From: a virus | Strand: one strand, 5' to 3' | Length of the DNA stretch: 64,000 nucleotides | Virus record (IMG/VR): IMGVR_UViG_3300027791_000007 | Span: 32,001-96,000 of that record | In this document: one piece after another, positions 1 to 63,306 of the stretch | Layout of the letters: the number at the start of each line of letters is the position of its first letter | Position numbering within the stretch: position 1 is the first letter of the stretch | Translations under genes and position numbers: made by a program | Notes under the pieces: model-generated | Seen by the model: only the letters and a program-made list of their open reading frames with translations | Told to the model about the DNA's origin: nothing | The model's database searches: none

Positions 1-409
1 GTGCAACATCAAGAGATGTATTGACAAATATCATAAATGTATCGTATCCTAGAGTCTCTAGTGTCCTTGCCTGTCCAGAGATTTTATCATAATCGTGTCC
101 AGTTCCGTCAATCACAAGTCCTAGTCTACCTTCTACATAGTTATCTTGTCTCTTCTTAGTGATTTCTTTTGATCTATCTCTAATTTTATCTCTAGGTTCT
201 GCTTCTCTATCAGGCATTTTTAGAGAAAGGCCAGCGTCTTTGAGTTTTTTCTCAAAAACCTCGTCTGAATTTACAACCTTTAAACCCATACCACCAGTGG
301 TTCTTTTTACAACATAAGATTTACCACTACCTGGCCCTCCTGCTAAAAAGAATGCTTTAAGTATATTGGGATCGTAAACTCCTTCTTGTAGTTCTTTGTA
401 TGATTTCAT
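1..409 (-). CDS. P-loop kinase (zeta-toxin/AAA_33/PNK-like); runs off the window edge
   Basis: Manual translation MKSYKELQEGVYDPNILKAFFLAGGPGSGKS...VVNSD...LVIDGTG; Walker A GGPGSGKS; absent from the ORF track. Confidence 0.8.
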   Translation of the reverse strand, partial: MKSYKELQEGVYDPNILKAFFLAGGPGSGKSYVVKRTTGGMGLKVVNSDEVFEKKLKDAGLSLKMPDREAEPRDKIRDRSKEITKKRQDNYVEGRLGLVIDGTGHDYDKISGQARTLETLGYDTFMIFVNTSLDVA

Positions 410-530
410 GTTTAACCCTATCAATAGTTTTCAGCTGATATTTATCTTCTTCTGAAAGTGGTTCAAGTGTTCTGTCTCTATTTAAGAATTTGGATCTGTT
501 TCTCATATTGGCTCTTGTCTTTACGTTCAT
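357..530 (-). CDS. small hypothetical protein (57 aa)
   Basis: ATG after GAGGG; MNVKTRANMRNRSKF...; fills the gap between two genes. Confidence 0.4.
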   Translation of the reverse strand: MNVKTRANMRNRSKFLNRDRTLEPLSEEDKYQLKTIDRVKHEIIQRTTRRSLRSQYT

Positions 531-594
531 GAGTATTTCCCTCTTTTTCTATTATGATTGAAGCATAACAAATGTACTATTGAATCCCCCCCTT

Positions 595-2025
595 CTAAGT
601 GTAAAATTGATTATTAGTCAAACCTTGAGTGCCTGTCTCAAAATCATCTACCTCACCTACAATTTTTATAGGTGATTCAAATGAGTCTTTTGCAAGTCTC
701 ATTAGGATTGAGTGACTATTTGACATGTTTGAAAAAGTGTGTCGTAATGTAGTTACTAAGTATCTACCTTTGTAATATGGATTAATCTCTTCGCCTGTAT
801 GGTTTCTACCTTGAATAGGCATGTCAAACTCTACAATATCTCCACACGAAAGGTGGCTTTGTCCAATTATCTGTAAATTGACAGAAGCACCTTGGTTCAG
901 TTCTATAATCTTAGAACGTCTTGCTAAAGTAGAATCGTGAGATCTGTCGTTAGAGTACAAGAAACCCTCTCCATATTTAGCACCCTCTTTAATGTAGGAT
1001 GCATCTATATTTATATCTTTTGGACTCGCTGAAATGGGTGTAAGTTTAATACTTGCCTCTGGAAAATCACTTATTTTATTATCCCCATCAACCAATGAAT
1101 CTGGATATATTGGATTATCATTAGAAGTTGCATCAAAATTAATTCTCTTGTGTTTCTTAAAATCCTCAAGGTAATTGAATGTTTGTTTGTTATATTTTTT
1201 CTGAAATATGTCATGTTGTAGTAGTGTACTTGCCATCATACCATTTCTATAAGCAGTTACAGTATCAGAAATTGCACCTTGTTCAAAACTAGTAACTCTT
1301 TTTAGTTCTTTTTCGATATTAGGTGATTTAGCATTATCATCCTTACTTTGAGTACCGGCCTCAGCAGCAAAAAATGATTGTTTGCTATCTTGAGAATACA
1401 TACTCTGTAGACTTCTAAAATGTATACCTTTAGTATTTTCATAGAACACATAGTGTGGGGAATTACCTTCTTCGGATATTGCTTCAGCAGCAAGTCTCTG
1501 TAGAAATTCATAAGGTCTTTGATTGGGAACTATTACATTTCTATTACCCATAGATGGTTCAATAAAAAGGTCTCTTTTTGTTCTTACTTCATTCCTCAAT
1601 ATTTTTTCTGCAATCTCTGAACATGTTCCAGTGTATGCATTAGATACTCTCATCCTATGGTTTCTTAGTGCATCCTTTGTTATAACAGATATTTCTACAA
1701 GATTTGCCTTACCACCCATCTCTTGTTTAGTACCTATTCTATATACTATAAGTGGTGAGTTCGTAAAGTCAATATTCTGTCCTTTACCATCAAGCCCTGG
1801 CGTAGAGATTTTAAGTGTAATATAGTCATGTCCAGTAATAGGTAGATTTAAGTCTAGAGCATTTGTATCGTTGATTGTGATACTTCCAGACATTTGTTTT
1901 TCAAAAATGTTCTCAAACAAATCTACAGTAATAAGTAACTTACTTATATCAGTTACATTACCACTAGCAGTATGTAACTTAGCCTCTTCAACTTTAAACT
2001 CACCAGCAAAATTAATTCCAGCCAT
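595..2025 (-). CDS. putative baseplate hub (gp27-like) protein
   Basis: 476 aa, coupled to gp53; C-terminal GRYLVTTLRH motif typical of hub proteins. Confidence 0.6.
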   Translation of the reverse strand: MAGINFAGEFKVEEAKLHTASGNVTDISKLLITVDLFENIFEKQMSGSITINDTNALDLNLPITGHDYITLKISTPGLDGKGQNIDFTNSPLIVYRIGTKQEMGGKANLVEISVITKDALRNHRMRVSNAYTGTCSEIAEKILRNEVRTKRDLFIEPSMGNRNVIVPNQRPYEFLQRLAAEAISEEGNSPHYVFYENTKGIHFRSLQSMYSQDSKQSFFAAEAGTQSKDDNAKSPNIEKELKRVTSFEQGAISDTVTAYRNGMMASTLLQHDIFQKKYNKQTFNYLEDFKKHKRINFDATSNDNPIYPDSLVDGDNKISDFPEASIKLTPISASPKDINIDASYIKEGAKYGEGFLYSNDRSHDSTLARRSKIIELNQGASVNLQIIGQSHLSCGDIVEFDMPIQGRNHTGEEINPYYKGRYLVTTLRHTFSNMSNSHSILMRLAKDSFESPIKIVGEVDDFETGTQGLTNNQFYT

Positions 2026-2549
2026 TATATCACCGACTCACTTATTCTTGTTTTAAATTCATCTACAAAGTCTGGAACAAATTTAGGGTCGAGTAATCTA
2101 ATACTACGTTTAGTGTCTTGTTTCTTTTCTTCATATTCAAAGTTAGTTATAGGTGTTGCATTAGGATATGTATCTAAATCATTTACCTCTATGTTTACTG
2201 TTGTTTTGCCAGATGTTTGTGCTATTTCATAATGGTGTATAGAGTTTGGGTTTACATACTTATCTTTTACATATGCTTGGAATTGTGGGGTAGTCATAGG
2301 CCATCCATGATATCTATCTGTAATATTGTTCATCAATAAAATAACCCAATGTAACTCTGGATCATCGTAAAACTTATCAGCAAGAATTTCTGGTGAATCA
2401 CCCTCTTTGATATCATATGTATCAAACATTGCAGAGTTAGTGGATACTTTTGACCTTATGGCAACTCTTCTCAAAAGATTAGTCACATCTTTTAAATTAC
2501 CATTACCTTCATTGTCATAGGGTATTACTGGAAATGAATTAAAATACAT
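2025..2549 (-). CDS. gp53: baseplate wedge subunit gp53
   Basis: MYFNSFP...YDIKEGDSPEILA..FYDDPELHWVILLMN (LysM-like); synteny with gp48. Confidence 0.9.
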   Translation of the reverse strand: MYFNSFPVIPYDNEGNGNLKDVTNLLRRVAIRSKVSTNSAMFDTYDIKEGDSPEILADKFYDDPELHWVILLMNNITDRYHGWPMTTPQFQAYVKDKYVNPNSIHHYEIAQTSGKTTVNIEVNDLDTYPNATPITNFEYEEKKQDTKRSIRLLDPKFVPDFVDEFKTRISESVI

Positions 2550-2557
2550 CTTCTCTC

Positions 2558-2863
2558 CTAAACTGCAAAACTCTCACCACATCCACACGATGCAGTAGCA
2601 TTTGGGTTAATAACTTTTAAATAAGAACCACCTAACTCTTTTACATAATCTACTGTACAACCTATAACATACATTTCTGCTATAGGGTCTAGAACTAGTA
2701 AATCATCAATAGGTTTACCCCATTTGACATCAGGCCAGTTTTTCTTAAAATCCCAGACATATTGAAATCCAGAACAACCACCCCCATTAACACCTAAAGT
2801 GATGTGGTCATTTTCTTTAATACTAGTGAGATATTCTTTTGCATTATCTGTAAGTGTAACCAT
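2558..2863 (-). CDS. iscA: A-type Fe-S cluster carrier (IscA/HesB family)
   Basis: GGGCSGFQY and C-terminal CGCGESF motifs. Confidence 0.93.
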   Translation of the reverse strand: MVTLTDNAKEYLTSIKENDHITLGVNGGGCSGFQYVWDFKKNWPDVKWGKPIDDLLVLDPIAEMYVIGCTVDYVKELGGSYLKVINPNATASCGCGESFAV

Positions 2864-2865
2864 AA

Positions 2866-4083: not shown

Positions 4084-4115
4084 GTCTACCCCTAAATAGT
4101 TCGGAAGGTTATAAC

Positions 4116-4123
4116 TATTTATA
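4116..4123 (-). promoter_or_regulatory. T4-type late promoter TATAAATA (gp48 operon)
   Basis: Exact TATAAATA on the minus strand, 32 nt upstream of gp48. Confidence 0.75.
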
Positions 4124-4570
4124 ATGGCTTACAAAGGAAAATACCAACTAAAGAACACTCACAAGTATATTGGCAATCCTATGAATGTGGTATACCGTTC
4201 CCTTTGGGAGCGTAAGTTCATGGTATATGCTGATAATAGTAATAACATTCTAGAATGGGGAAGTGAAGAACACATAATTCCCTATGTATCTCCGTGGGAT
4301 GGAAGGAAACATAGATATTTTCCAGATTTCTACATTAAGGCAAAACAAACAGATGGTTCTATTAAGAAGTTTATTATTGAAATTAAACCAAAAAACCAGT
4401 GTAGTCCACCAGAAAAGAAACCTGCTCGAAAGACAAAAGCATGGTATAATAAGGTAAAAACATGGGGTATTAATCAGGCAAAATGGCGTTATGCAAATGA
4501 GTATTGTCTGGATAGGAATTGGGAATTTAAAATACTAACAGAAGAACATCTAGGAATAAGGTATAAATAG
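4124..4570 (+). CDS. gp4: head completion nuclease gp4 (TnsA-like)
   Basis: MAYKGKY...YRSLWE...WGSEE..IPY...RYFPDF...IEIKP...NQAKW. Confidence 0.92.
   Translation: MAYKGKYQLKNTHKYIGNPMNVVYRSLWERKFMVYADNSNNILEWGSEEHIIPYVSPWDGRKHRYFPDFYIKAKQTDGSIKKFIIEIKPKNQCSPPEKKPARKTKAWYNKVKTWGINQAKWRYANEYCLDRNWEFKILTEEHLGIRYK
4562..4569 (+). promoter_or_regulatory. late promoter TATAAATA
   Basis: Exact motif, 5 nt before the ATG at 4575. Confidence 0.7.
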
Positions 4571-14473: not shown

Positions 14474-14715
14474 GGTGGTAGGTTTCTGTTGCTAAGTACC
14501 TACCGAACTCCGTGAGATTAAGCAGCTAGTGCATAATCCTCGATTGCAAAATTATCGTTTGCATTTGTAGTCTTGACCAATTACGGAGTCATCCGACAAT
14601 ATTCCTCGCATCTATCCTTGCCTGTCGATCCTATTTCACCCCCATAGATTTTGGTGGAGGTGATGGGTACTGCCCCCATGTCCAGTTCAATCTTCAATTT
14701 GTATCAACACATTGT
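14474..14715 (-). ncRNA. ssrA: circularly permuted (two-piece) tmRNA; tag ANDNFAIEDYALAA*
   Basis: Acceptor piece ...ATGGG-GGCAGTA-CCCAT-CACCTCC-ACCA ends at 14652; 8-nt spacer; GGGGGTG starts at 14643 and gives G3:U; tag at 14562-14518; 3' GCAACAGAA hairpin. Confidence 0.93.
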
Positions 14716-14719
14716 ATTA

Positions 14720-14750
14720 TATTTATACCACACTTAGATACCATTGTCAA
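14720..14750 (-). promoter_or_regulatory. overlapping sigma70-like and late promoters for tmRNA
   Basis: TTGACA-17-TATAAA; the -10 is part of TATAAATA (14727-14720). Confidence 0.7.
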
Positions 14751-15168
14751 GTAAAACTTCTACTTTTGTCTTACTATTTTTTGGTATATGCATTTCCATA
14801 CCCTTACCAGACCCCAAAAGACACGCCATTCCAGTTGTGTAATGTAATTCAATCAGAGTAAATCTACTAGTTTGAGGATTCATTGACCACATAATCTGTA
14901 GAGGTAGAGTTCCACCTTCTCTTGTTATTAAAAATGCATCACCACTAACAAATGGTATTTCACCCAATTCATTTCGTAACCAAGAAACCATTGCATTTAT
15001 TGGTTTACATGTCATTGGCCTCATTATAACAAATTCTGATGGTACTTCTGGTACTATCTCTTTTTTTTCTTCCATATCACAACACGGAGGTTCTTGATTC
15101 GGTTCAATTGCAAATACAGTAGTAGTTAAAGCGATACCGATAAGAACACTAAGCAGTAAGTTTTTCAC
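14734..15168 (-). CDS. hypothetical secreted protein
   Basis: N-terminal signal peptide-like segment. Confidence 0.7.
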   Translation of the reverse strand: MKNLLLSVLIGIALTTTVFAIEPNQEPPCCDMEEKKEIVPEVPSEFVIMRPMTCKPINAMVSWLRNELGEIPFVSGDAFLITREGGTLPLQIMWSMNPQTSRFTLIELHYTTGMACLLGSGKGMEMHIPKNSKTKVEVLLDNGI

Positions 15169-33475: not shown

Positions 33476-34535
33476 AAGTTTCTTTTCTTCTGGCGGTCAA
33501 GTTTTTTTGTGTACCACACTGTGAATAACATTGTCTTATATTATTTTTTGGGTCATTACTCCATAGTAATTCTATATAATCTCCTTGTTTTTTATATTCA
33601 TTTATTATCTCATCCCAATCATATTTTCTTAAATCTATTTTCATGTTTTTTAAAATTTGTACATGTTTAGCTTTATGCCCAACATGGTTTGGATTGTATT
33701 TAGATGCAAATTGATAATTACCCCACCAACAACAAGGTAAAACATCTCCATCACATGATACAAATAATTCCTCTTTTTTTTGTGATTGGCACAATATTCC
33801 AGATCCAGATGCATCCCAAGTTGATTCTGTCCATTTCTTTAATTCATTATTTTGTGGAACATAACTTGGTGTTCCACCAAATTTATCTAACATTTGTTGT
33901 TGAATCTTTTTTACTGGTGGTACTCTTGGTTCTCTTATTATACCATCTTCTAAAACGGTACGATTATTTCTTCTAAGTTCAAATTTTTTAAACCCCATCT
34001 TTTTTGCAAGTTCTCTTGCCTCATCTATTTGATGTTCGTTATGTTGAAATGCTATAAATACCCACTCTGCTCTACCACCATTATCTATAAATGTTTGTGC
34101 ATTTTTAATAATCGCATCAAAATTAGTATTTCTTCTATATAAATGATTTGTATCTCTCAACCCATCTATACTAAATCTTACATGACTCTTTCTTCTTGTC
34201 ATGGTTTTTGCAAGTTTTGTCCACCACTCTGTATTTCGCAAAGAACCATTTGTTACGACATGTATCTTACATTCAAATTGTTCTATGTATTCTACTATAT
34301 CTATGAGTTTGGGATGAATTGCTGGATCACCATAATTACCACAAAAATTAACACGCTCCATAGTTTCCCAAGGGATCTTTTTAAGAGTCTCTAATTGCAA
34401 ATCTATCCAACCAGAGTTCTCTATAAATTCTGTAACACCACTAGGTCTACTAGATGTTCTTCCACAAAGAGGACATCCAGCATTACACCTATTAGTAAGT
34501 TCTATATGAAGTTTTTTAATATCACTTTTTATCAT
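33471..34535 (-). CDS. radical SAM protein with C-terminal SPASM/Twitch domain
   Basis: CNAGCPLC, FCGNYGDP, TNGS, FSIDG; C...GDVLPCC...CYSQC. Confidence 0.88.
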   Translation of the reverse strand: MIKSDIKKLHIELTNRCNAGCPLCGRTSSRPSGVTEFIENSGWIDLQLETLKKIPWETMERVNFCGNYGDPAIHPKLIDIVEYIEQFECKIHVVTNGSLRNTEWWTKLAKTMTRRKSHVRFSIDGLRDTNHLYRRNTNFDAIIKNAQTFIDNGGRAEWVFIAFQHNEHQIDEARELAKKMGFKKFELRRNNRTVLEDGIIREPRVPPVKKIQQQMLDKFGGTPSYVPQNNELKKWTESTWDASGSGILCQSQKKEELFVSCDGDVLPCCWWGNYQFASKYNPNHVGHKAKHVQILKNMKIDLRKYDWDEIINEYKKQGDYIELLWSNDPKNNIRQCYSQCGTQKNLTARRKETL

Positions 34536-35580
34536 TCTCTAAACCATAATCGCTTCTATTCATTATCATATACATTTTTTCTGCAAGTAAATTACCGACA
34601 ACATAATCTTGTAAATAATGAAATCCAGCTAAAACTCTACCATATCCACATTCTTTTGCAGCTTCAATGATACCTTTTCTATGTTCTGGAAATTTATTAG
34701 ATATATACAATGCAACTAACATAGATTGTGTTGCATGTCCACTAGGATAACTCTTAGTTTTATTAGTTGTACTTGCCATTGGTTTAATTTCGTTATCATG
34801 ATCAAAAGGTCTTTTTAAGTCAAAAATTTCTTTAAAATATTTGATTGTTGGTCTTGCCTGCTGAACTATATCTATCATCTCATTTTCGTGAAATGACATA
34901 CCGTGTTCAAGTAAATATTGCTCAATCGCATAATAAGTCTGTTCATCATGGTTAGCAATAGACTCTTCATCTTTGTCTGTTCTTTTTGCCATAAGGGATT
35001 TTAATTTTAATACTTCCTCATCCAGATCAGTGTTGGGTTCTGGTAATGTTATTTGAAGGTGTAAGTCTTTTGGAAAAAACTCCATTGCTTCATTAAAACT
35101 TTCAAACTTTAACTTAGGCCCAGAGGTTTTAAAATCTTTCTTTCTCATTACTGTCTTTGCAACAAGTTCTAACTCTCCACCCTTTAGGTTTAATACAAAC
35201 GGCATATTGATATCAGTTTTCATATCATTGATAACTGCTTCTGCATCAGGCCCTAGTTGTGCGATAGTCTTACCAAATTTCTTGTGTGACTGTTTGAATA
35301 GTCTAGTAAGTTCTGCTGGTGTGATTTGTTTATTGTTTCTCGCATCATTTACTCTGTCTAAGAAATGTCGTGTAAACTCTACGTCAATACCAAGAGATGC
35401 AAATATTCTATCTGCATACTTCTCTATTTGATCTAAATCGGATTTCTTTAATGGTTTTTCTGATTGTGCATTTAAATTAATGATTGGAACATAGGTATCT
35501 AACCCAGGCCCAAGGCTACCATCTTTATAAGATACACCAGACAAAGACTCTTTAATATGTGTTCTAAAATCACGAGGCAT
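34522..35580 (-). CDS. fusion of a RegB/BECR-like domain and a PAP2 phosphatase
   Basis: PAP2 motifs K.IFDLKRP, SYPSGH, RVLAGFHY.QD; N-domain FTRHFLDRV; start revised to MPRDF after a GAGG SD. Confidence 0.7.
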   Translation of the reverse strand: MPRDFRTHIKESLSGVSYKDGSLGPGLDTYVPIINLNAQSEKPLKKSDLDQIEKYADRIFASLGIDVEFTRHFLDRVNDARNNKQITPAELTRLFKQSHKKFGKTIAQLGPDAEAVINDMKTDINMPFVLNLKGGELELVAKTVMRKKDFKTSGPKLKFESFNEAMEFFPKDLHLQITLPEPNTDLDEEVLKLKSLMAKRTDKDEESIANHDEQTYYAIEQYLLEHGMSFHENEMIDIVQQARPTIKYFKEIFDLKRPFDHDNEIKPMASTTNKTKSYPSGHATQSMLVALYISNKFPEHRKGIIEAAKECGYGRVLAGFHYLQDYVVGNLLAEKMYMIMNRSDYGLENDKK

Positions 35581-37075: not shown

Positions 37076-37507
37076 CTATACAATGGAAGCGTATAGTTTA
37101 CATGAATTATTTCTTCCTACCATTTCATAATCCACTTTCAACTTCAATCCACCCTCTACCATGTGAGAAATCCCATCATCGTCTAAAAACTCATCAAATG
37201 GTGTATTCTCATCTTTACCAAATCTTCCACCCATCTTATTAAGTTGAAGTTCAAATGAACCACTCTGTTCACTCATACTTGGTGTTGCTTCCATACCAAG
37301 ACCAACAGCTGCTAATCTATTTCTTAAAGTATTAAGAGCGTGTTCTGGTAAAATAAATTCTTGATTTCCTATCAGTCCAACAAATGCATTAAGTCTTTTT
37401 ACGACTTCTGGATTTCCTAGTTCGGCAGGATTAATATCTAAATCCACAGCAACATTATGGTGCATATTATTGTGAACTTCTTTTATGTGTTGTTTAAAAC
37501 TTTTCAT
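37076..37507 (-). CDS. putative internal virion protein
   Basis: N-terminus MKSFKQHIKE resembles the T4 capsid-targeting sequence. Confidence 0.65.
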   Translation of the reverse strand: MKSFKQHIKEVHNNMHHNVAVDLDINPAELGNPEVVKRLNAFVGLIGNQEFILPEHALNTLRNRLAAVGLGMEATPSMSEQSGSFELQLNKMGGRFGKDENTPFDEFLDDDGISHMVEGGLKLKVDYEMVGRNNSCKLYASIV

Positions 37508-38762: not shown

Positions 38763-38770
38763 TATTTATA
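38763..38770 (-). promoter_or_regulatory. late promoter TATAAATA
   Basis: Exact motif. Confidence 0.7.
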
Positions 38771-40024: not shown

Positions 40025-40032
40025 TATTTATA
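40025..40032 (-). promoter_or_regulatory. late promoter TATAAATA
   Basis: Exact motif. Confidence 0.7.
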
Positions 40033-40033
40033 A

Positions 40034-40546
40034 TTATCTATATCCCAAAGACTTCAATCTTGTAATAGTTTTATTGACATTCGTGTGATGAACCCCAATT
40101 CCACCTCTTTGTTCCCATTCCTTAATGTTCTTTATGTAATCATCAACTAAAACGGATGGTTTCCCATCAATTGTGGCATATGCCTGTTTCTGATCTCTTT
40201 GTACCAAATGAATATTACCTCGTTTAACATTCGTATTTTTGGCCAACCATTTCATCTTACCTGGCCTAGAATTTGAATCCTTCTTTGAAAAAGCAGAAAG
40301 AATATGTGCATCATATTTAGCAATAAATTGCCATAACTTTTTAGAACCAGGCATCCATTCTAACTCTGCCCAGAAACCTTTAGTATCACTAATCTTCTGC
40401 CATCGTTCTCCCTTATCAGCAGTAACAAATGAACCCCCAGCAGCTTTATCAGCACCAGCCATAAAGTTACATAGAACTTGATCCATGTCACAATATATAA
40501 TAGGCAAATCTTCTTTTGCCGTCATTAACTCCGAAAGAGTTTTCAT
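40034..40546 (-). CDS. HAD-family 5'(3')-nucleotidase-like phosphatase
   Basis: IYCDMDQVL, ILSA, K..W, VLVDDY..NI.EW...GG.G. Confidence 0.85.
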   Translation of the reverse strand: MKTLSELMTAKEDLPIIYCDMDQVLCNFMAGADKAAGGSFVTADKGERWQKISDTKGFWAELEWMPGSKKLWQFIAKYDAHILSAFSKKDSNSRPGKMKWLAKNTNVKRGNIHLVQRDQKQAYATIDGKPSVLVDDYIKNIKEWEQRGGIGVHHTNVNKTITRLKSLGYR

Positions 40547-40549: not shown

Positions 40550-41074
40550 TTAATCCTTTATTTTAGGATCAATTTCAACCTTTGCAGCTGGTTCACCAGT
40601 TGCGGCTTTTGAACCTTTTGCAAAATCTTTTTTCTCTTTCATCTTCTTTTTGTTCTCATCTTCAAAAGGATTCTTACCCTCTTGTCCACTCCAAACTTTC
40701 TTTAGAGCTTCCCTCATAGATAATGACTTACCATTCATTGCAGAGAGTTGTTCTTCAACTTCTTTTTTAGATTTTTCATCTACACCAAGTGGAGCCTTTT
40801 TTTCTTCTACTGGTTTAGCAGAGGAAAACGACCACTCTTTAAGTTTACCAATTAGTTGATTAACTGCTTCAGATTTCTCACCAGTGTAGTTCTTATCAAT
40901 ATAATCAAAAAACTTTTTCTTTGCTTTATCATCTTTTAATTCAGCAGGCGATTTAATATTAAACTTTTTCAATGCACCGTTAAAGAATTTTTGGTACTCT
41001 GCTTTAGTTCCGTCTGTTAGACTAGCCTTAATCGCCTCTTCAAGACTACCCTCTTTTTTATCAAAATATGCCAT
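40550..41074 (-). CDS. putative prohead core / internal protein
   Basis: Lys/Glu-rich; SLEEAI; EYQKFF...LKKF...SPA.L...KKKFF..IDK. Confidence 0.6.
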   Translation of the reverse strand: MAYFDKKEGSLEEAIKASLTDGTKAEYQKFFNGALKKFNIKSPAELKDDKAKKKFFDYIDKNYTGEKSEAVNQLIGKLKEWSFSSAKPVEEKKAPLGVDEKSKKEVEEQLSAMNGKSLSMREALKKVWSGQEGKNPFEDENKKKMKEKKDFAKGSKAATGEPAAKVEIDPKIKD

Positions 41075-41083: not shown

Positions 41084-42433
41084 CTACTTTTTTAGCGCAT
41101 TAAGCAAGTCTTTGTATGACTTCGCTATTTGGTTTGAAAATTTTGCTTTGTCGATTGATGTTCGTATTGATGCAAATTTGTTCAGTGCTGCTTGTGCAAT
41201 CTTATCGTTAACCTTGACTTTTTTATTATCATTGAACTTGACATCTTTTAGTCCTCTTAGACTAACTGATTTTCTAAGTTGCATAAGAATATTATTATCA
41301 GCGGTTTTAATATCATCGTCTGTAGCAAAATCATCAATATCAGCAGGGTCGACTTTTCGTGCCTCTACTGTTTCTTCTTCTTCTTTAAGTTGCGACTTAT
41401 CTACTTTATCACCAATACTCTGTGCAGTCTTTAATCTTGCAATTTTAAGTGGTGAAACATCTTTTAACCTTTTCTCTAAAGAACCTCTTTCTATCTTCAA
41501 ATCTTTTTCATCACTATCTATTGCATAGATTTTCATATCTGTACCAACAAGAGCATATGTTATTTTTGGTGCTTCATCTAAATCTAATTCAGGCCTGTAG
41601 GGTTCAACGATTCTAGAAGCGTTACCTTCTGGAATAACTCTTAGTTTACCAGCAATGTATAGTGGATGCATCTTCATTGCTTTTTGTGCATCTTCCTCAT
41701 CATTACTGTCTACTTTAACTACGAACTTTCCACCTTTAGTGTCTAACTTGTATGCAATATTACCCATTGCATCGTCTACATCAATAGCGATGTTCTTCAT
41801 TTTACCTTCTTTGACATATGCCAACAGTTCTTCATTTTGTCTCCTCAAAACAGCTGCAACTTGTGTCTGTTTTGATAAACCTTTTTTAATTTTTTCTATT
41901 GCATTTACAGCGCCAGTCATGTTTCCTTGTTTATATCTAGGATCGGATGCGACTCCAATTGCCATTTTTACCTCTTTCGGTGTGTAGTTCTCATCAAGGT
42001 CTAATGTAACACACTCCTCGGCCAATGTCAAGTCTTTTTTTTCATTAATTCCTTCTAATTTGATAGTTTTCATTGATGCAGCCATATCACCAAGTGCTAG
42101 ACTTACATTACCGTCTGGCCTCTTGTATAAGAAGTACTTCATACCACCCTTACCACCATCCTTTTTCAGAGTGATTTTCTCACCCATACCAGCAGAACCC
42201 ATCTTTACTTTGTTTTTAGATGTTACTATGAAAGTACTAGACATGTTTTGTGCAACAGACGAGTCGTAACCAATTGTAACTTTTTGTTTTGATTTTAATT
42301 TATCAAATGCAGTTACAGCATCTTTTTTGATATCTTCGGTTACAGAGTATGCTTTTCTACTAGCAATGGAATCAGCATTGTCCATGACTTTGGCGTAAAG
42401 TTCGTATATATTTGTATATTTGTTCATGGTCAT
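41084..42433 (-). CDS. putative multi-domain internal virion protein
   Basis: Late promoter; small domains separated by xxE sites (VTE, INE, LDE, VKE, LKE). Confidence 0.6.
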   Translation of the reverse strand: MTMNKYTNIYELYAKVMDNADSIASRKAYSVTEDIKKDAVTAFDKLKSKQKVTIGYDSSVAQNMSSTFIVTSKNKVKMGSAGMGEKITLKKDGGKGGMKYFLYKRPDGNVSLALGDMAASMKTIKLEGINEKKDLTLAEECVTLDLDENYTPKEVKMAIGVASDPRYKQGNMTGAVNAIEKIKKGLSKQTQVAAVLRRQNEELLAYVKEGKMKNIAIDVDDAMGNIAYKLDTKGGKFVVKVDSNDEEDAQKAMKMHPLYIAGKLRVIPEGNASRIVEPYRPELDLDEAPKITYALVGTDMKIYAIDSDEKDLKIERGSLEKRLKDVSPLKIARLKTAQSIGDKVDKSQLKEEEETVEARKVDPADIDDFATDDDIKTADNNILMQLRKSVSLRGLKDVKFNDNKKVKVNDKIAQAALNKFASIRTSIDKAKFSNQIAKSYKDLLNALKK

Positions 42434-42446: not shown

Positions 42447-42454
42447 TATTTATA
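42447..42454 (-). promoter_or_regulatory. late promoter TATAAATA
   Basis: Exact motif. Confidence 0.7.
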
Positions 42455-44156: not shown

Positions 44157-46577
44157 TTAACCTTTCATCAAGTCTGTGACGGATTTGGTACTCCAAAACT
44201 TACACGACCAATATCCTGCTGTAGTCTTATCTTTTTTCTGATCGCAATTGTGTCTTGCACGAAAATTCTTTCTCGCTTGTGGGTCATCTCGTTTGATTGA
44301 CATATTTGGGTCACCAAACTCTACCTTCACAACATTGCCCTTATCGTTCTTTACATAAACTTTGTACTTTTTGACATCACCCTTTGTTGGATTATTTAGT
44401 TCTTTGCCTTCAGCATCTTCTGTATATTCACCCCAATCATTCATTTTCTTAAATTCAGTAAATGATGCGGCAAGTTTAGTTATTGCTTTTCTTCTTGAGA
44501 ATTTTGTTTGGCCTGATTTACCCTTTTTGGGGATTAGTAAATTAGGTAATTTTTTGTCTTTCTTTAGAGTTGATTTCTCTTCCATATCTGTTGATTCTGG
44601 TACACAGTTAGGAACTTGTTTTCCACCCTTATTCTTCATACCAACTTGTTTGTAACCATCCCAACATGGGCCTGTATCAGACTTTAATGATTCCTCATCA
44701 AAGTTATCAGCACAATCATCACAACAACCAACCTTTTCTAACATTGATTCCTTGACTTCTTGTAGTTTCCACCACCAATCTTCACCATGTCTTAATTGAT
44801 AGTTTGCACGAACAACTTGACTTTCAAACCACTCATTAACTTGGCCTGGTGTTACTTTCTTAGTATGATCTGCATAGTCTTTACCAATTTCATATGATTC
44901 TGCTTTTTTCTTCTTCTTATATCCACCTTGTGAAATGTCTTTTTGTAAATCTGGGTCTGCTTTACCACCAGTTAACATAGAATTAACTCTTGCAAATGCC
45001 CACTGTTGTGGGGTTGTGCCTGGGCGATGTCCACCTTTCCATGCAGCCAGTCCTCTGTCATATGACTTTTTAAGAATACCATATGGAACACCACTCTGTT
45101 TTGATTTGTTTACAAGTCCTTCAATCTTTTCGTCTAACTGTACTGATTCAGTATATGGGATTTGTTTAAGACCTCGTTCTTTTTCTACTTGTTTATTTGC
45201 TTTGTCAAGTATAGATGATATATCAGAACCATCAAATGCAATAGGTTTTGTTGGGTCACCAGTTATCCACCCCTTTTCCTTTGACTTTTTATCATCTACT
45301 TGGCCTGGATAATGTTTGAAATCTTCTTTTTTATCTCCAAACATCTGTTTAAACTTTTTAGTATACTGTGATGGTTTGGTATCAGCATCTTTATCGCCTG
45401 GAGCATTGTCTCTACTTCCACCTTTTGCAAAATGTCTTGCACGAGCAAGTTTAGTAGATTTTGACATTTCATCTCCTTCGGAATCTTTTGAGTAATACTT
45501 TGCTGGTTGTGTACCCTTTACATCTTTAACATCACCCTTGACTTGTTTTGTCTTTGTAATCTTCTTAGGTTCTTCTCTAAGTCTTGGTTCTCTACGATTA
45601 ACAGATGGGTCTTCCATTTTAAGATTTGATGGGTCATTGTTCATAGGATCATTATCTTTGTGTCCTACGTCCATACCCTTAATTACCTTATCACCCATAA
45701 CTCTGCGAGCCTTGTTCCTAGAAGAACGTCTTGCAATCTGTTCTGGTGTACCTTGATAATTTGCATACTCTTGTTTATAGTTTCTAACTTCTGTTAACCA
45801 TGCCTTATGTACTTTACCAGATGCATCGTTAAATGATATGTAATTAGTTCCTCTTGATATAATTTTACCATCAATACCATTTGCACTAATCATTTCTCCA
45901 ACTAACCAGATTTTTCCAGTAAGATACTTATCTCTTAGAGTTTCATAGTCATCCATGTCACCCATGTCTTTTTCTTCTCTGATACCCATATATTTACGAA
46001 CATCATTGAATAATTTTCTTGCAGTTGTTTCATCAGAAGCAACTCCTTGTTTGAAGATATCAAAACTATTTGCAGTTGCAGCAGCTCTCATCTTAGATGC
46101 CGACATACCCTCAACACCCTCTGCATCTGGATCTCTTTCTCCAGCAGAAATAACTTTGATTTCGTCAAAACCGTAATAACCGTGTTTCTTACCTTCTACA
46201 CCATTGTACTGATTTAGTAGTCTTTCAAACTCTTTTACTCTATCAGAACCAGCAATCATAGTGATTGACTTATATCCTAGTCCATGCAATCTAACAGCAA
46301 TGTCAAATACATTTCTTATTTTTGGATCTGCAACAATATTCTTAGAATGTTTTTTGAATATCTTTCTCATATATGCAATCTTTAGTGCATACGGTAAAGG
46401 GTCTTTAGCAGGACTTTGAGACTGTGAAGCGAAAATAGAATACTCTCTAGAACCAGAAGAGGTCTTTGCAACCTTTAGTATTAGTTTCTCATGCCCAACC
46501 GTTGGTGGATTGAATCTACCGAAAGTAAACGTATGATTAAACTTAGCTTCGTTAAGTATTTGTTTAAATTTTTTCAT
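44157..46577 (-). CDS. multi-domain protein: HIGH-family cytidylyltransferase-like domain, HNH-like domain and several small domains
   Basis: FTFGRFNPPTVGH, AGSDRV, SASKMR; DVGHKD.DP.NN..SNL; later QQWAFARVN, PCWDGY and FRARHNC...GYWSC modules. Confidence 0.8.
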   Translation of the reverse strand: MKKFKQILNEAKFNHTFTFGRFNPPTVGHEKLILKVAKTSSGSREYSIFASQSQSPAKDPLPYALKIAYMRKIFKKHSKNIVADPKIRNVFDIAVRLHGLGYKSITMIAGSDRVKEFERLLNQYNGVEGKKHGYYGFDEIKVISAGERDPDAEGVEGMSASKMRAAATANSFDIFKQGVASDETTARKLFNDVRKYMGIREEKDMGDMDDYETLRDKYLTGKIWLVGEMISANGIDGKIISRGTNYISFNDASGKVHKAWLTEVRNYKQEYANYQGTPEQIARRSSRNKARRVMGDKVIKGMDVGHKDNDPMNNDPSNLKMEDPSVNRREPRLREEPKKITKTKQVKGDVKDVKGTQPAKYYSKDSEGDEMSKSTKLARARHFAKGGSRDNAPGDKDADTKPSQYTKKFKQMFGDKKEDFKHYPGQVDDKKSKEKGWITGDPTKPIAFDGSDISSILDKANKQVEKERGLKQIPYTESVQLDEKIEGLVNKSKQSGVPYGILKKSYDRGLAAWKGGHRPGTTPQQWAFARVNSMLTGGKADPDLQKDISQGGYKKKKKAESYEIGKDYADHTKKVTPGQVNEWFESQVVRANYQLRHGEDWWWKLQEVKESMLEKVGCCDDCADNFDEESLKSDTGPCWDGYKQVGMKNKGGKQVPNCVPESTDMEEKSTLKKDKKLPNLLIPKKGKSGQTKFSRRKAITKLAASFTEFKKMNDWGEYTEDAEGKELNNPTKGDVKKYKVYVKNDKGNVVKVEFGDPNMSIKRDDPQARKNFRARHNCDQKKDKTTAGYWSCKFWSTKSVTDLMKG

Positions 46578-47821
46578 TTATCCCATGCCTTTATAGCGGT
46601 AAAGTTGTTAAACGAGAACTCCATTCTGTCCACTAATTTAACTGCATTTCCACTAACTCTATCAATAGCAACATAACCTTCTGGGTTAGTTACTTTAAAT
46701 CCATTACTAGTCTTAATAAAGGTATTTGTTAATCCCTTTACACTATTTAGTTTATTCACAATTTCTGCTTTAGCATCAACTAGATAGTTCTGAAACTCTA
46801 GAGTTAAGGTTAATACGTTTGTAAATTTCTTGACTTCTCGTACATATTCTTTTTGCAAATTCTTGTATTTTTCTTTACCAGCAACCGACTTTACTTTATC
46901 AATATTCTTCTGCAATGCCATCTCTACATGTTTTGCATATCCTATAGCATGTTGTCTGGGGTTAGATATTGTCTCTCCAGCCCTAACTTTAGTATTATTA
47001 TATGTTTTTAATCCAGCACTAGCAAGTTGTCCAGTAAACAACTCTTGTAGTTTTAAAAACGATTTCAACTGGTTTGAATTAATCTTTTGAAAAGTCTTTC
47101 CAGTTTGTGACAGTAGAGCAGTTACTTTTTCTGTCTCTTTTGAATTAAATGTCGCACTTCCAGACACATCCTTATAGGTTGCATCATCCATCCACACAGA
47201 GGACGGTTTATTTAAACTTGATATGTTCGCACCAAATGATGCTTTCATTGATTGTAAATCACTTCCAGTATAAGTTGTATGCCAAACTACACCGATTTTT
47301 GATTTGTTTATTGTATTTCCTATGTCACTATCCACTGGTACTGCATATACAATAGTATTAGGCTGAAAAGTATAACACTTTTCGCCACCAATTGTTGTGG
47401 TGTCAACATCATCGGTGAACATGAGGTCTCCTTGAAGAACTCCTTTGATACCCAATTTAGAAAATTCTGTAAATGCAATCTTAAACTTAGAATTAAGAGC
47501 TCCAGATAATTTATCATCATCTATCTCCTTTATTGATTTGTATAGTTTTGGTTCAGCATTAAATACAGACTTCTTTGCAACAAAGAACTTATTATCAGAA
47601 GGGTCGATGCCAGAAAAGATTGCAGGCGCACCATCCCACTTAACAGTCATTGAAATAGATGAACGAGAGTTACCAGCAAGCATATCTCTTAATGAACGTA
47701 GGAAGTTAATTGCAGCTCTACCACCGTCAACTCCGTAGTTGAGAATTTCATCCTCTAGATGTTCTAGGTGTAAATTCTTACCACCCTTATCTTCTGTAAG
47801 TAGTTGATTAAATGTTTTCAT
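46574..47821 (-). CDS. DUF6267-like protein with ATP-dependent ligase motifs
   Basis: TVKWDG (motif I), QGDLMF (III), EGYV (IV), VKLVDR (V). Confidence 0.7.
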   Translation of the reverse strand: MKTFNQLLTEDKGGKNLHLEHLEDEILNYGVDGGRAAINFLRSLRDMLAGNSRSSISMTVKWDGAPAIFSGIDPSDNKFFVAKKSVFNAEPKLYKSIKEIDDDKLSGALNSKFKIAFTEFSKLGIKGVLQGDLMFTDDVDTTTIGGEKCYTFQPNTIVYAVPVDSDIGNTINKSKIGVVWHTTYTGSDLQSMKASFGANISSLNKPSSVWMDDATYKDVSGSATFNSKETEKVTALLSQTGKTFQKINSNQLKSFLKLQELFTGQLASAGLKTYNNTKVRAGETISNPRQHAIGYAKHVEMALQKNIDKVKSVAGKEKYKNLQKEYVREVKKFTNVLTLTLEFQNYLVDAKAEIVNKLNSVKGLTNTFIKTSNGFKVTNPEGYVAIDRVSGNAVKLVDRMEFSFNNFTAIKAWDK

Positions 47822-47957
47822 TTGGTATACGCCTTATAGCCTGTGCCAGTTTCTCTATTGTGCCACCTTTTATGCCAGGCCCAATTACTAATTCTACCAC
47901 ACTTAGTTTCTACCATACGATAGAATTTGTCAAGTACTTTTATTTTTAAACTTATCT

Positions 47958-49313
47958 TCATTTTTGTAATCCATTGTATTTTACAGCAAGACTGAATTGC
48001 CCCAACTTCTTCTGTCCAGCATTTCCAGACTTATTTGTTCTAATTGACATATTCATAGTTAACTTGTCTTGTCCAGATTTCAACTCTATAAACCAACTTT
48101 GTTTAGATGATTTACTAGAATATGCTTTAACAAACTGTACTTGTGGTAAAAATACTCCAAGGGCATCTTTGTCTGTTACTTCCTCATACTTGTCACCAAT
48201 TGCTTTGATAACTAAAGTAGGAACATCTGGAGCATCCCTCAATACTTCATGTCGAATATAATCTACGGTTTTCTCTTTATTCTTATTAAATAAGTCAATA
48301 ACACCATTTCTCATAATTTCTAGATACTGATTGTAATACAACTCATATTCTTTATTATTCTTTTGGTCAAATTTTCTTAAAGCATTAACAGTTTTAAGTG
48401 TGCCTGATCTTTGTCTATATTGATTTTCTGCTGGGAAATCTGGTATTTTTGAATATATTTGAGAATACACCGTTTTCATTAATGTATCATGTATTCTTTT
48501 TTCTTTGAATACATCAAAAATCTTTGTAGTATATGTGTTAAGTTGTGGTTCAGAAGTTTTCTTTCCACCAGCTTTTAAACTCACACCTAATATACTTTTA
48601 TCGGCATACATTAAAAACATATCGCCTGGGTGTCCACTTGGAACACCAGAAGGTTTTTGACGATATCCCCAAAATACACTTTGAATAGGTTTGTCGTTAT
48701 GTTGATCTGTTAAGAATTTTGTTATTGCAATTGCATTAGTCATCTTATCTTCAAACTTAGATGATGTATCTGCTTTATTAATTGTCTCTTGAGCGGCTTG
48801 TAAGTCTTTACTACCAATACATTTAAGACTTTTGATATCCATGTCTAATAGATATTTATGAAATGCTTGTGTGTCTCTAGGTGTATATTTTGTTTCAAAT
48901 GCAATACAAGGAAATAGTTCTGTTATACTTGCATTAAGGGTAGTTTCTGCCATACCACCAGAAATAGGTTTCACAAAGATACGAAACTTCTTACCTTCAT
49001 GTTCACCATCAATTGGGTCAACACTTGATTGAGCAGTTCCTAACTGTGCCTGAATACCAGCTTGATTAAGATTCCTTAGAATCTCATCTCTATCCGTTTC
49101 TCTATCTTTTGAACGAACAATTATTACATCTCTAGAAGTAGAAGATTGTCTCTCATTCTTCTCGAAATCAAGTCCTCTAAAAATATCTACTGGTAATGTT
49201 GTTTGTTCTGATAAGAAATACTCCTCCACCAAATCAAGTTTAGGTTTATATGTAGATGCTCTACGCCTAACTTGTTGAACGGATTTCTTTAGTAATGACA
49301 TCAGTTTCCCCAT
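47958..49313 (-). CDS. putative PD-(D/E)XK restriction-endonuclease-like protein
   Basis: E...HPGDMFL...GVSLK; late promoter directly upstream. Confidence 0.55.
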   Translation of the reverse strand: MGKLMSLLKKSVQQVRRRASTYKPKLDLVEEYFLSEQTTLPVDIFRGLDFEKNERQSSTSRDVIIVRSKDRETDRDEILRNLNQAGIQAQLGTAQSSVDPIDGEHEGKKFRIFVKPISGGMAETTLNASITELFPCIAFETKYTPRDTQAFHKYLLDMDIKSLKCIGSKDLQAAQETINKADTSSKFEDKMTNAIAITKFLTDQHNDKPIQSVFWGYRQKPSGVPSGHPGDMFLMYADKSILGVSLKAGGKKTSEPQLNTYTTKIFDVFKEKRIHDTLMKTVYSQIYSKIPDFPAENQYRQRSGTLKTVNALRKFDQKNNKEYELYYNQYLEIMRNGVIDLFNKNKEKTVDYIRHEVLRDAPDVPTLVIKAIGDKYEEVTDKDALGVFLPQVQFVKAYSSKSSKQSWFIELKSGQDKLTMNMSIRTNKSGNAGQKKLGQFSLAVKYNGLQK

Positions 49314-49332: not shown

Positions 49333-49340
49333 TATTTATA
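49333..49340 (-). promoter_or_regulatory. late promoter TATAAATA
   Basis: Exact motif at the head of the late block. Confidence 0.75.
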
Positions 49341-49354: not shown

Positions 49355-49431
49355 TGGCCTGCTCGGTAGGAGTCGAACCTACGACCTATTGCTTAGAAGG
49401 CAATTGCTCTATCCAGCTGAGCTACGAGCAG
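49355..49431 (-). tRNA. tRNA-Arg(UCU) with encoded CCA
   Basis: CTGCTCG TAGCTCAGCTGGATAGAGC ATTGC-CTTCTAA-GCAAT ... GTAGG-TTCGACT-CCTAC CGAGCAG GCCA. Confidence 0.96.
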
Positions 49432-61549: not shown

Positions 61550-61554
61550 GTTCC

Positions 61555-61583
61555 ATTGTATAGTAAATTGTTGGCATTGTCAA
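61555..61583 (-). promoter_or_regulatory. sigma70-like promoter; leaderless gp43 mRNA
   Basis: TTGACA-17-TACAAT, then GGAAC-ATG-ATG. Confidence 0.65.
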
Positions 61584-61588
61584 GTCTT

Positions 61589-61837
61589 TTATTCAAATAA
61601 TTCTATTTGTTTTTTCTTGTTAACTGGTTTCATTGGGAAATAAATATTAATCATTTCTAGTCTATCATGTGCGGCAGATAGTTTATCTAGTTCAGCCATA
61701 ACTGCTTCTGTTACATCTGAATGCTCTCCAATTCCTGCCGGCATTGTTTGATACACTGCAATATTTGCCTTGTGAACTTCAATTTGTCCTTCTGCATGTT
61801 TTTTTGCAGCAAAAATAATTTGTTCGCCTACTTTCAT
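61589..61837 (-). CDS. conserved hypothetical protein
   Basis: HKANI.VY...PAGIGEHSDV.EA...EL. Confidence 0.75.
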   Translation of the reverse strand: MKVGEQIIFAAKKHAEGQIEVHKANIAVYQTMPAGIGEHSDVTEAVMAELDKLSAAHDRLEMINIYFPMKPVNKKKQIELFE

Positions 61838-63306
61838 TTTGTACTCCTTTTATTGAGTTTTTGGGGTAAATCGTCCTCATCTGTTTTATCGCCTCTTTCA
61901 ATCCAATCGGATAGAACGAATCTCCTATTTGGATTGACACTTACTTGAAACAAAGTCATAATATCTCTGTTAGCAAGAAAAGTACTTCTTGAATCTTTTT
62001 CAGTAAGTCCTATTGGTACATCTAAATATTTTCTATTATTAAATGTTATGTTTACGTTAACAATAGGTCTTTCATCTATTTTTCCAACATGTTCTGGTTT
62101 GGAAACACCTTGTAAGGCACTTGTAAATTTCTTTCCGTCTTTTTCCCACTTAACTGTTCTGCCGTTAATATCTACTTTGTCAACAACAAACATTGATGCA
62201 TGTGTTCCATTTCCAGTATCGAACTTTGCTCTTAGTGGGCCGTAACCATCTATTTCAATTCTTTCTACATATCCAGATTCAGTAGGAAATGAATGTCTAC
62301 GATTATTTGGTATCATAATAAACTCTAATAACTTTTCTACAATCTTAGATGGATTTGCATCACCAATATATGCATTGTTGTCTGATTCTGTATCAGTAGC
62401 ATCATACAATGCAAAATTAGAACCAATACCAGCAGAACCATTACACTCTAAAACGTAAACATCTCCACTTACAATAGCATGGTCAACACCAACAACATAT
62501 GCACCAACTGAACGAGATGCCCTTAGAATCACTTCTCTTTCTCTATCATTCAATTTATATGGTTCTGTTGTAGCACCTCTATGTCTATTAGACCTAAAAT
62601 CTTTCTTTGCAGAAATCCTCTTTGTTGATGCTAGTATTTTACCACCAACTACAATTGTTCTTATATCACTATCGAATTTAAAATATTCTTGAATTAAAAG
62701 TTCAGCACCAAATTTCCATAATGACTGAACATTAGAAACTAAACTCTCGTAATCTTTAGCAATAGAAACACCAATACCTTGTGTACCAGTAATTGTTTTA
62801 ATGATAACTGGAAACTTACCACCAATTCTTTTTAATCCATCTTCTAGAGACTTTTCATTTGAAACTATTGATGTTCTAGGAGTCGGTATACTGTTTCTTT
62901 CAAAAGATAAGAACGCTGACATTTTATTATCACATGTCAACATACCTTCTCTATTGTTAATCATAAACGAACCAGACTTCTCAAAAGATGTTAGTAGTGC
63001 GAGTCCGATTTCATCTTCTAAAACTCCAGCACGAACAAAACACACAGTCTTTCTAGTGTTAAATTCTACATCATTATCGTTACCATCAAAATTAGATACT
63101 GTTATTATTCCAGTTTCTAAATCATTAGCAGCGATCCATGCATCTCTAACATTAATGATGTGACATTTAATATTACGTTTTTCGCAAGCTTTCTGTAAAA
63201 GATTGCTTACTAGTTCTGGTTTTTTAGATTTAACTTTGGTTAGAATTGCTACTTCAATATCAGTGTCAACTTTGGCCTCAGTAAAAAAATCGGCAAATTT
63301 TTCCAT
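61834..63306 (-). CDS. rimK: RimK-family ATP-grasp ligase fused to a retropepsin-like aspartic protease
   Basis: CDNK, FPVIIK..GTQGIGV, LIQEY, DIR, DFRSN, GVD, VLECN; C-terminal AKFDTGN...FLANR. Confidence 0.85.
   Translation of the reverse strand: MEKFADFFTEAKVDTDIEVAILTKVKSKKPELVSNLLQKACEKRNIKCHIINVRDAWIAANDLETGIITVSNFDGNDNDVEFNTRKTVCFVRAGVLEDEIGLALLTSFEKSGSFMINNREGMLTCDNKMSAFLSFERNSIPTPRTSIVSNEKSLEDGLKRIGGKFPVIIKTITGTQGIGVSIAKDYESLVSNVQSLWKFGAELLIQEYFKFDSDIRTIVVGGKILASTKRISAKKDFRSNRHRGATTEPYKLNDREREVILRASRSVGAYVVGVDHAIVSGDVYVLECNGSAGIGSNFALYDATDTESDNNAYIGDANPSKIVEKLLEFIMIPNNRRHSFPTESGYVERIEIDGYGPLRAKFDTGNGTHASMFVVDKVDINGRTVKWEKDGKKFTSALQGVSKPEHVGKIDERPIVNVNITFNNRKYLDVPIGLTEKDSRSTFLANRDIMTLFQVSVNPNRRFVLSDWIERGDKTDEDDLPQKLNKRSTK

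Follow-up and report, generated by a model that had tools for sequence, protein, structure and literature searches.

Unrelated, mostly enzymatic proteins of a probably pelagimyophage-type virus begin with a leader resembling the T4 capsid-targeting sequence

Locus and genomic setting

In a 64,000-nucleotide stretch of viral DNA (hereafter the window), which corresponds to bases 32001-96000 of the single 148,443-bp contig of IMG/VR record IMGVR_UViG_3300027791_000007, about nine unrelated genes, most of them encoding enzymes, begin with a leader like the head-loading peptide of T4. An original prediction had listed seven open reading frames (ORFs) sharing such an N-terminus, and all seven were found on the minus strand, with starts at 409, 35580, 37507, 40546, 46577, 47821 and 63306. 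This set was incomplete, as carriers of 447 and 451 residues, and perhaps a further one of 174 residues, had been missed.

The reference for the leader is phage T4, of which the ip, head and alt regions were read in NC_000866. The ipII and ipIII products start with MKTYQEFIAE, as the prediction had stated, the gp24 and Alt propeptides comprise 10 residues ending in E, and the gp23 cut site is F-L-T-E↓A. The capsid-targeting sequence (CTS) on IPI, IPII and IPIII is attributed to Mullaney and Black (1996), as cited in PMC9026906 and PMC3012670. Targeting involves mainly residues 4 and 7 of the T4 leader, and processing residues 8 and 10; the protease gp21 cuts after L/I-x-E, which agrees with the cleavage rule of the prediction, and an Asp at position 10 blocks cutting, not loading (PMC9026906). 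T4-like phages have also been suggested to use the tag for packaging varied proteins (PMC9026906).

The minus strand holds nearly all genes of the window, and the G+C content is about 34%. In a phage collection, the closest relatives are genomes of Methylophilales phage Melnitz (Kyanoviridae), in which the DUF6267 gene product is 71% identical, and cyanomyoviruses are more distant; megablast against phage records returned a sole match, 179 bp to Melnitz. A permuted transfer-messenger RNA (tmRNA) of alphaproteobacterial type lies at 14474-14754 on the minus strand (Rfam RF01849, 126.6 bits; RF04321, 115.3 bits), a position at which an ARAGORN scan reported no tmRNA. As this type of tmRNA points to a SAR11-like host, and therefore to a pelagimyophage-type relative of T4, the phage is probably a marine T4-like virus of pelagimyophage type infecting a SAR11-like bacterium.

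Genes carrying the leader

The carrier genes and late boxes described below all lie on the minus strand. Most enzyme labels of the original prediction stood, namely P-loop kinase, PAP2, HAD (NT5C), HIGH-type nucleotidyltransferase, ligase-like DUF6267 and RimK, and the label that fell is the RegB-like one given to the domain preceding PAP2. Phe or Tyr occupies position 4 in the kinase, the 143-residue protein, the nucleotidyltransferase, DUF6267 and RimK; the PAP2 leader is off the T4 register by one residue and HAD has Leu at position 4. None of the leaders has a signal-peptide-like hydrophobic core.

The DUF6267 protein (415 residues; 46574..47821, leader at 47792-47821; PF19782, E = 3e-103) can reasonably be regarded as an RNA-ligase-like nucleotidyltransferase from its motifs and, more tentatively, from its predicted fold. 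It has ligase motifs I (KxDG, with the catalytic lysine), IV (EG) and V (K): among 105 diverse sequences, K61, D63 and G64 are kept in at least 90%, E381 is nearly invariant, and G382 and K395 are invariant. The AlphaFold2 model has a mean predicted local distance difference test (pLDDT) score of 92.4 and a predicted template modelling score of 0.88; residues 1-11 are the sole segment below 50, and the leader is predicted to be disordered. Among the top VIA-align matches of this model, those with 160-200 residues aligned are all RNA ligases (5cot, Z 8.5; 1xdn, Z 8.3; 6n0t, Z 8.0; 2hvq, Z 7.6), the best being Naegleria Rnl, the editosome ligase, fungal Trl1 and T4 Rnl2, with 168-202 residues aligned, and the RNA-ligase matches span Z 8.5-6.6, which is mid-range. 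Foldseek found nothing in the PDB below E = 0.1, comparison with PDB sequences gave nothing significant, and DUF6267 is not mentioned in the literature collection that was searched.

The adjacent gene (44157..46577, leader at 46548-46577) encodes an 806-residue HIGH-type nucleotidyltransferase of the T4-GC190 family, referred to as cytidylyltransferase. It matches the phage 'cytidyltransferase' families phrog_3041 (E = 4e-71) and phrog_395 (E = 7e-66), ends with a long Lys-rich C-terminal region including DUF5824, and has a G-R-F-N-P-P-T-x-G-H region weakly like NadR-type NMN adenylyltransferases; a search against PDB sequences gave nothing significant. In relatives, the nucleotidyltransferase and DUF6267 are separated by a family of about 129 residues that often starts CTS-like (L001:13273-13665 in Melnitz; 41 ORFs in L006-L085). 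This family is absent from the present genome, in which a 47-residue ORF (47818-47961) is all that lies nearby. A TTGACA ... TAGAAT-like sequence within that ORF, just upstream of DUF6267 (47840-47925, minus strand), is not among the best sites of a consensus scan and is a possible additional non-late promoter.

The P-loop kinase (220 residues; 1..409, leader of 9 residues at 383-409) runs off the window start, matches Pfam AAA_33 and Zeta_toxin with E about 1e-10, and has nothing in common with T4 PseT beyond the P-loop. The PAP2 fusion (34522..35580) joins a conserved N-domain (phrog_23027) to a PAP2 phosphatase (PF01569, 45.0 bits against a cut-off of 27.2, residues 248-333) behind an 11-residue leader at 35548-35580, the T4 register being shifted by +1. 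For the N-domain, the proposed likeness to RegB was supported neither by BLASTP (best E = 0.67 over 10 residues) nor by profile comparison with hhalign (probability 0.5% over 14 columns). No Pfam RegB match appeared at E <= 5, and the ESM Atlas gave unnamed viral clusters only. A short H-x-L-D-R resemblance is all that is left, and the AlphaFold2 model of the N-domain has a pLDDT of 47.

The 143-residue protein (37076..37507) carries a canonical 10-residue leader at 37478-37507, had no match in Pfam, PHROG and NCBIfam scans, and is a candidate non-enzymatic internal protein. The RimK-family alpha-L-glutamate ligase (61834..63306, leader at 63277-63306) passes its family cut-off (TIGR00768, 150.5 bits against 143.4), with further support from Pfam RimK (E = 3e-35) and PDB RimK matches (E = 2e-27). 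The 'protease' part of its earlier label is a lead only: the C-terminal 190 residues (61834-62409, minus strand), for which a Pfam scan gave no match, are like viral RimB-like retropepsin-type endopeptidase domains according to ESM Atlas features (score 0.91), so that a RimK-RimB fusion might be considered.

Two basic proteins are probable additional carriers, judging from their N-termini and those of their relatives. The 447-residue protein (41084..42427) has a 9-residue leader at 42401-42427 if the second ATG (42427) is used; Shine-Dalgarno spacing is better for this ATG than for the first (42433), and the relatives begin M-T-x-Y-x-K-T-M-x-E, then A-L. In the 451-residue protein (phrog_2496; 47958..49313), the first 36 residues (49206-49313) end with F-L-S-E and may be a propeptide. 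The PHROG match begins at residue 58, relatives show [FL]-[LFM]-[SE]-E near residue 30-36, and the Melnitz gene at the syntenic position, which has no significant tblastn similarity, opens directly with a 10-residue leader ending F-L-S-E. The 174-residue Lys-rich protein (40550..41074; isoelectric point (pI) 9.2) might also be a carrier, as its positions 3-4 include an aromatic residue and residues 10-13 read S-L-E-[ES]; its orthologues show Y/F then S-L-E by inspection only, the regular expression not being matched.

The least convincing carrier is the NT5C-type HAD 5'(3')-deoxyribonucleotidase (40034..40546; NT5C, 27.2 bits with the cut-off at 24.8; phrog_2643, E = 3e-23). Leu4 and L/M7 are kept in 13 orthologues, but a Glu at position 9/10 is present in only about four of them, which leaves a leader only weakly CTS-like and a doubtful assignment. 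Counting this doubtful case, pI exceeds 9 in 7/10 probable or possible carriers compared with 24% of the genome's proteins, a property that fits DNA-packed proteins and equally nucleic-acid enzymes in general.

A late-promoter block

T4-type late boxes TATAAATA stand 14-36 nucleotides upstream of gene starts at 49340, 42454, 40032, 38770 and 33475. Their total (35) equals the number expected from composition, and their placement before start codons is non-random; from this placement, the block at 33.4-49.3 kb looks late. It holds five of the seven genes first noted, as had been claimed, plus the three further carriers.

The box at 49333..49340, 20 nucleotides upstream of the start codon, heads the run of genes for the 451-residue protein, DUF6267, the nucleotidyltransferase and a 563-residue protein. 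A second (42447..42454) heads the run of the 447-residue, 174-residue and HAD genes, at 27 nucleotides from the second ATG of the 447-residue gene and 14 from the first. A third (40025..40032) lies ahead of a 396-residue acidic protein that occupies the position of the cyanophage virion proteins T4-GC425/537, a positional correspondence only, with no significant BLAST match. A fourth (38763..38770) is ahead of the run ending with the 143-residue protein and the PAP2 fusion. A scan of 33-50 kb for sigma-70 promoters and terminators gave no enrichment, with 57 sites against 67 expected from shuffles. A tRNA-Arg (anticodon TCT; 49355-49431, minus strand) lies immediately upstream of the late promoter at 49340.

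Occurrence and conservation of the leader

The motif used for counting followed the positions mapped in T4 in the literature, with an aromatic residue required at 4, a hydrophobic one at 7, L/I at 8 and E at 10, or a version shorter by one residue, and was relaxed after the candidates had been viewed by adding H/T/Q at 7 and M/F at 8, which makes the test partly post hoc. In the whole 148-kb genome, the relaxed motif is found at 6/181 N-termini and at 4/1008 internal Met positions (Fisher p = 0.0014). Over 80 related IMG/VR contigs, the counts are 101/771 N-termini against 2/4989 internal Met positions, and the unrelaxed T4-register motif alone gives 36/771 against 0/4989. In the same contigs, the gp41 helicase family (41 members) and the UvsX family (25 members) include no match.

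Over 80, 80 and 37 related viral contigs, leaders vary in sequence and yet retain three features: position 4 is aromatic, P3 is L/I/M, and P1, just ahead of the conserved domain, is Glu. This is best seen in DUF6267, for which 73 orthologues (72-95% identity) display 43 different leaders of 9 or 10 residues directly followed by a near-invariant D-K-G-G-K-N-L-H-L-E-H. At position 2, any of I, K, M, L, D, N and R may occur, whereas among 55 distinct DNA versions Phe4 is kept in 54 (TTT 33, TTC 21), L/I at P3 in all 55 through six Leu codons, and Glu at P1 in 54, the lone exception being a parsing slip. As codons change synonymously at the kept positions, the constraint bears on the peptide and not on the mRNA; selection on the leader is at the level of protein, not DNA.

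The other families display comparable patterns. The nucleotidyltransferase starts with M-[KR]-x-F-x-x-[ILM]-x-E in 30/31 orthologues, and the motif is present in 8/9 members of the 143-residue family, with endings such as FITE, YIAE, VIAE and HLRE. In the kinase, a Glu always immediately precedes the conserved G-[VL]-x-D-P at 37 related loci, the strict motif fitting 26/37, and RimK shows F-x-x-F-[IL]-[ST]-E at the start of nearly all of 80 related loci, often with a start two residues longer. A site of the L/I-x-E type was found in these four families and not in HAD.

The leader as a separable module

The leader can be absent from otherwise related proteins. Many DUF6267 relatives have no tag, and in cyanophage Syn1 the homologues of both DUF6267 and the nucleotidyltransferase start at the conserved domain, the peptide being absent; in Syn19 and S-SM1, the nucleotidyltransferase is tagged and DUF6267 is not. 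The Syn1 cytidylyltransferase is a short form of 189 residues without leader, and the short forms of P-HM1 and P-HM2 measure 570 and 552 nucleotides (Table S8 of PMC3037559). In Syn19, the cytidylyltransferase and the gene two downstream both start CTS-like (L086:6950-8110 and L086:9908-10954), as in S-SM1.

Modularity was assessed on 150 DUF6267 representatives sharing at most 50% pairwise identity. Within the ten residues before the domain, [LIVMF]-x-E occurs in 79/83 forms with an extension of 11-40 residues, whereas 17/20 forms with almost no N-terminal extension have no such site. In forms with a fused upstream domain, the site lies exactly at the junction in 14/15, compared with 11% of random ten-residue windows of the same proteins. 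Its maintenance at internal junctions is not explained by translation initiation and is as expected of a protease site.

Metagenomic proteins made of PAP2 alone, or of the N-domain of the PAP2 fusion alone, each begin with a CTS-like leader, and N-domain fusions may be polyproteins cut into two cargo proteins. In the relatives L021, L028, L030 and L033 (for example L021:1199-2782), the N-domain is fused in frame to DUF6267 with L-A-E at the junction. In the present genome, the junction between N-domain and PAP2, F-E-S-F-N-E (35056-35100), aligns with the leader of stand-alone PAP2.

Head machinery and virion evidence

The genome encodes Portal_T4, Peptidase_S77, T4_CASP and Gp23, all outside the window. 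The prohead protease is of the gp21 type (Peptidase_S77, E = 6e-33; genome 115579-116223, L003:3580-4224), the scaffold of the gp22 type (T4_CASP, E = 9e-65), and the phage's own gp23 has F-M-T-E↓A-A at the expected place. The gp21 homologue shows L-I-T-E at residues 6-9 and F-I-A-E at 16-19, a start that recalls the L-I-E-9 site near the N-terminus of T4 gp21 (PMC9026906).

Measured evidence comes from a relative, cyanophage S-SM1, of which purified virions yielded 41 proteins by mass spectrometry, including the putative 'citidylyltransferase' T4-GC190 (Sullivan et al. 2010, PMC3037559). Peptide counts in its Table S8 are 25 for GC190, which is more than for gp21 or gp25, and 7 for GC1455, and GC1453, GC1454, GC425 and GC426 are listed as well (PMC3037559). 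These virion proteins are SSM1_188, 190, 191, 192, 195 and 197, a block around the DUF6267 gene that is syntenic with the late block of the window. Among 223 S-SM1 ORFs, the motif stands at the N-terminus of only two, SSM1_190 (the nucleotidyltransferase) and SSM1_192 (GC1455), and at none of 815 internal Met positions. The chance of finding both tagged proteins among about 41 virion proteins out of 223 is about 0.03, and the untagged DUF6267 homologue (GC71) is absent from the virion table.

Interpretation of the leader

The leaders are almost certainly real, selected and modular peptides. They probably act like the T4 leader, which means that they would bring proteins into the prohead core and then be cut off by the gp21-type protease; the candidates keep a match to the T4-mapped positions 4, 7, 8 and 10. 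By analogy with T4, the leader, through its aromatic residue at 4 and hydrophobic residue at 7, would dock the protein on the gp22-type scaffolding core during head assembly. The Peptidase_S77 protease would then cleave [L/I/M/F]-x-E behind its Glu, and the mature protein, basic in most cases, would stay in the DNA-filled head and probably leave with the DNA at infection. Probable carriers are the P-loop kinase, the PAP2 fusion, the 143-residue protein, the HIGH-type nucleotidyltransferase, DUF6267 and RimK, together with the 447- and 451-residue proteins and perhaps the 174-residue one. Sequence evidence, together with one published virion proteome obtained from a relative, lends good support to the original claim that catalytic proteins are loaded into the head. 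For one family, the S-SM1 data support retention in the mature head; for the present phage, we infer docking, cleavage, retention and ejection, as well as any joint function of the enzymes.

Several points weigh against this reading. The HAD leader is without the conserved Glu, and RimK in this genome has Phe at P3 instead of L/I. Taken alone, the genome shows a modest enrichment, with p ranging over about 0.001-0.06 according to how the motif is defined, the regular expression was adjusted with the candidates in view, which makes the test partly post hoc, and the orthologue counts over related contigs are inflated by common ancestry and are not phylogenetically independent. RimK and the kinase lie outside the late block and have no TATAAATA boxes, RimK being located in a region of replication genes. 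T4 internal proteins are not strictly late either. Besides, the sole measured link between tag and particle is presence in S-SM1 virions, which is not head location, cleavage or ejection, and the virion proteomes of S-PM2 and Syn9 do not include GC190, but genuine structural proteins likewise escaped detection in those studies (PMC3037559).

One alternative accepts targeting to the prohead core and confines the proteins to assembly, as accessory scaffold or core components or as enzymes whose target is the head or the DNA within it. They would then be degraded, expelled or kept undelivered, and there would be no injected kit. T4 gp22, gp67 and gp68 offer a precedent, as they share these protease sites and are for the most part cleared from the head (PMC9026906), and several proteins of the block (174, 447 and 563 residues) are Lys/Glu-rich without an enzyme fold. 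The T4 proteins with a single N-terminal site, that is, the internal proteins and Alt, are however retained and ejected, and the enzymes considered here keep intact catalytic motifs. With 25 peptide counts in mature virions, the S-SM1 cytidylyltransferase is also a cargo that is retained, and the assembly-only explanation appears improbable.

A function outside the capsid, such as docking or activation for a chaperone, another protease, a membrane or a replisome site, is given a similarly small probability. It would agree with the shortness of the tag and with RimK and the kinase standing among early or replication-type genes without late promoters, but would leave without reason the fit to the T4 sequence at all four mapped positions, the gp21 consensus at its end and the presence of both tagged S-SM1 proteins in virions, and it sits poorly with [LIVMF]-x-E being kept at internal fusion junctions and with the lack of a signal-peptide-like core.

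Translation-initiation bias (Lys/Phe codons after the ATG of an AT-rich genome) or chance is largely refuted and retains hardly any probability: M-K starts are indeed common in AT-rich genomes, this genome alone has only 4-6 matching proteins and the 35 TATAAATA boxes are what composition predicts, but conserved positions change codons synonymously while their neighbours change amino acid, the motif is near-absent from 4989 internal Met contexts and absent from replication gene families, the site persists at junctions where nothing is initiated, and the tag is missing from many otherwise conserved homologues.

As regards function, the original idea of an RNA/nucleotide repair or counter-defence kit that would act ahead of phage gene expression derives from the family names and is conjectural. 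T4-type loading of these proteins leaves room for a wider and tentative proposal. Pelagimyophage-type heads would be pre-loaded with an RNA-ligase-like enzyme, a kinase, phosphatases, a nucleotidyltransferase and a RimK/RimB-type module for glutamylation of ribosomal protein S6, which would be injected and would repair or remodel host RNA, nucleotide pools or ribosomes before phage expression; the likelihood of this whole scheme is estimated as rather low. The combination of kinase, phosphatase and ligase recalls healing-and-sealing RNA repair, a more specific reading that is considered unlikely and is weakened by the fact that HAD, one of the three activities, is the least convincing carrier.

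Significance

The principle of the tag is known since the T4 work of the 1990s. What is new is its extension to pelagimyophage- and cyanophage-type genomes, the dominance of enzymes in the cargo, the sites at the junctions of fusions and a reason why cytidylyltransferase occurs in virions. For uncultured marine T4-like phages, sequence alone would suffice to predict which proteins are packaged and probably injected, provided that the tags function as in T4. The presence of the cytidylyltransferase, an apparent metabolic enzyme, in purified cyanophage virions (2010) would be explained, and head cargo in this clade would consist mostly of enzymes instead of small inhibitor proteins. This would point to host takeover or counter-defence reactions starting from DNA entry in phages of SAR11, OM43 and picocyanobacteria. 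Should the pre-loaded enzyme set be real, it would concern pelagimyophage-type phages, which are among the most abundant viruses of the sea, and their cargo could be read from N-terminal tags.

Comparison with known systems

No published account was found that pairs a capsid-targeting sequence with cyanophages, pelagiphages, HTVC008M or Melnitz, and papers on pelagimyophages and on Melnitz are silent about internal proteins and about virion proteomics. Among the closest known systems is that of the T4 internal proteins IPI, IPII and IPIII, which share with the present carriers a 10-residue leader with an aromatic residue at 4, a hydrophobic one at 7, L/I at 8 and Glu at 10. In both cases, a gp21-type protease and a gp22-type scaffold are encoded, and the cargo proteins are mutually unrelated and mostly basic. 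The T4 internal proteins are small (about 10-20 kDa), whereas the cargo described here consists mostly of large predicted enzymes of 220-806 residues; moreover, the leader is here often of 9 residues, its position 2 is free and the carriers are spread over several loci. The carriers have no sequence homology to T4 internal proteins, and their packaging, cleavage and ejection are predictions.

A precedent for catalytic cargo is given by T4 Alt, a head-carried ADP-ribosyltransferase of 682 residues that has a 10-residue propeptide ending in Glu and is injected with the DNA. T4 has one such enzyme, whereas five or six tagged enzyme families are present here. Alt has Ile at position 4, and its chemistry is ADP-ribosylation, to be compared with ligase, nucleotidyltransferase, kinase, phosphatase and ATP-grasp activities predicted here. 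The chemistries of the tagged set (RNA-ligase-fold nucleotidyltransferase, P-loop kinase, HAD or other phosphatases) are the same as those of the T4 Pnkp and Rnl1 healing and sealing system and of fungal Trl1. Pnkp and Rnl1 are, however, made early and not packaged, and a pathway link with the tagged set would be a surmise.

In the giant phages phiKZ, 201phi2-1 and SPN3US, many head proteins are cut after Glu by a gp21-related protease and ejected, and this cargo includes enzymes such as virion RNA polymerase subunits (PMC5694885, PMC9026906). Unlike the tags described here, giant-phage propeptides usually exceed 100 residues and end with an S/A-x-E site, with no short tag in the T4 register.

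S-SM1 T4-GC190 is a homologue of the 806-residue protein (43% identity over 267 residues), located in the same syntenic block beside DUF6267 and provided with the same kind of leader. It differs by its length of 387 residues, as the long C-terminal region is missing, and by the untagged state of the adjacent DUF6267. In PMC3037559, T4-GC190 is listed among the structural proteins without explanation, and a targeting tag is not mentioned.

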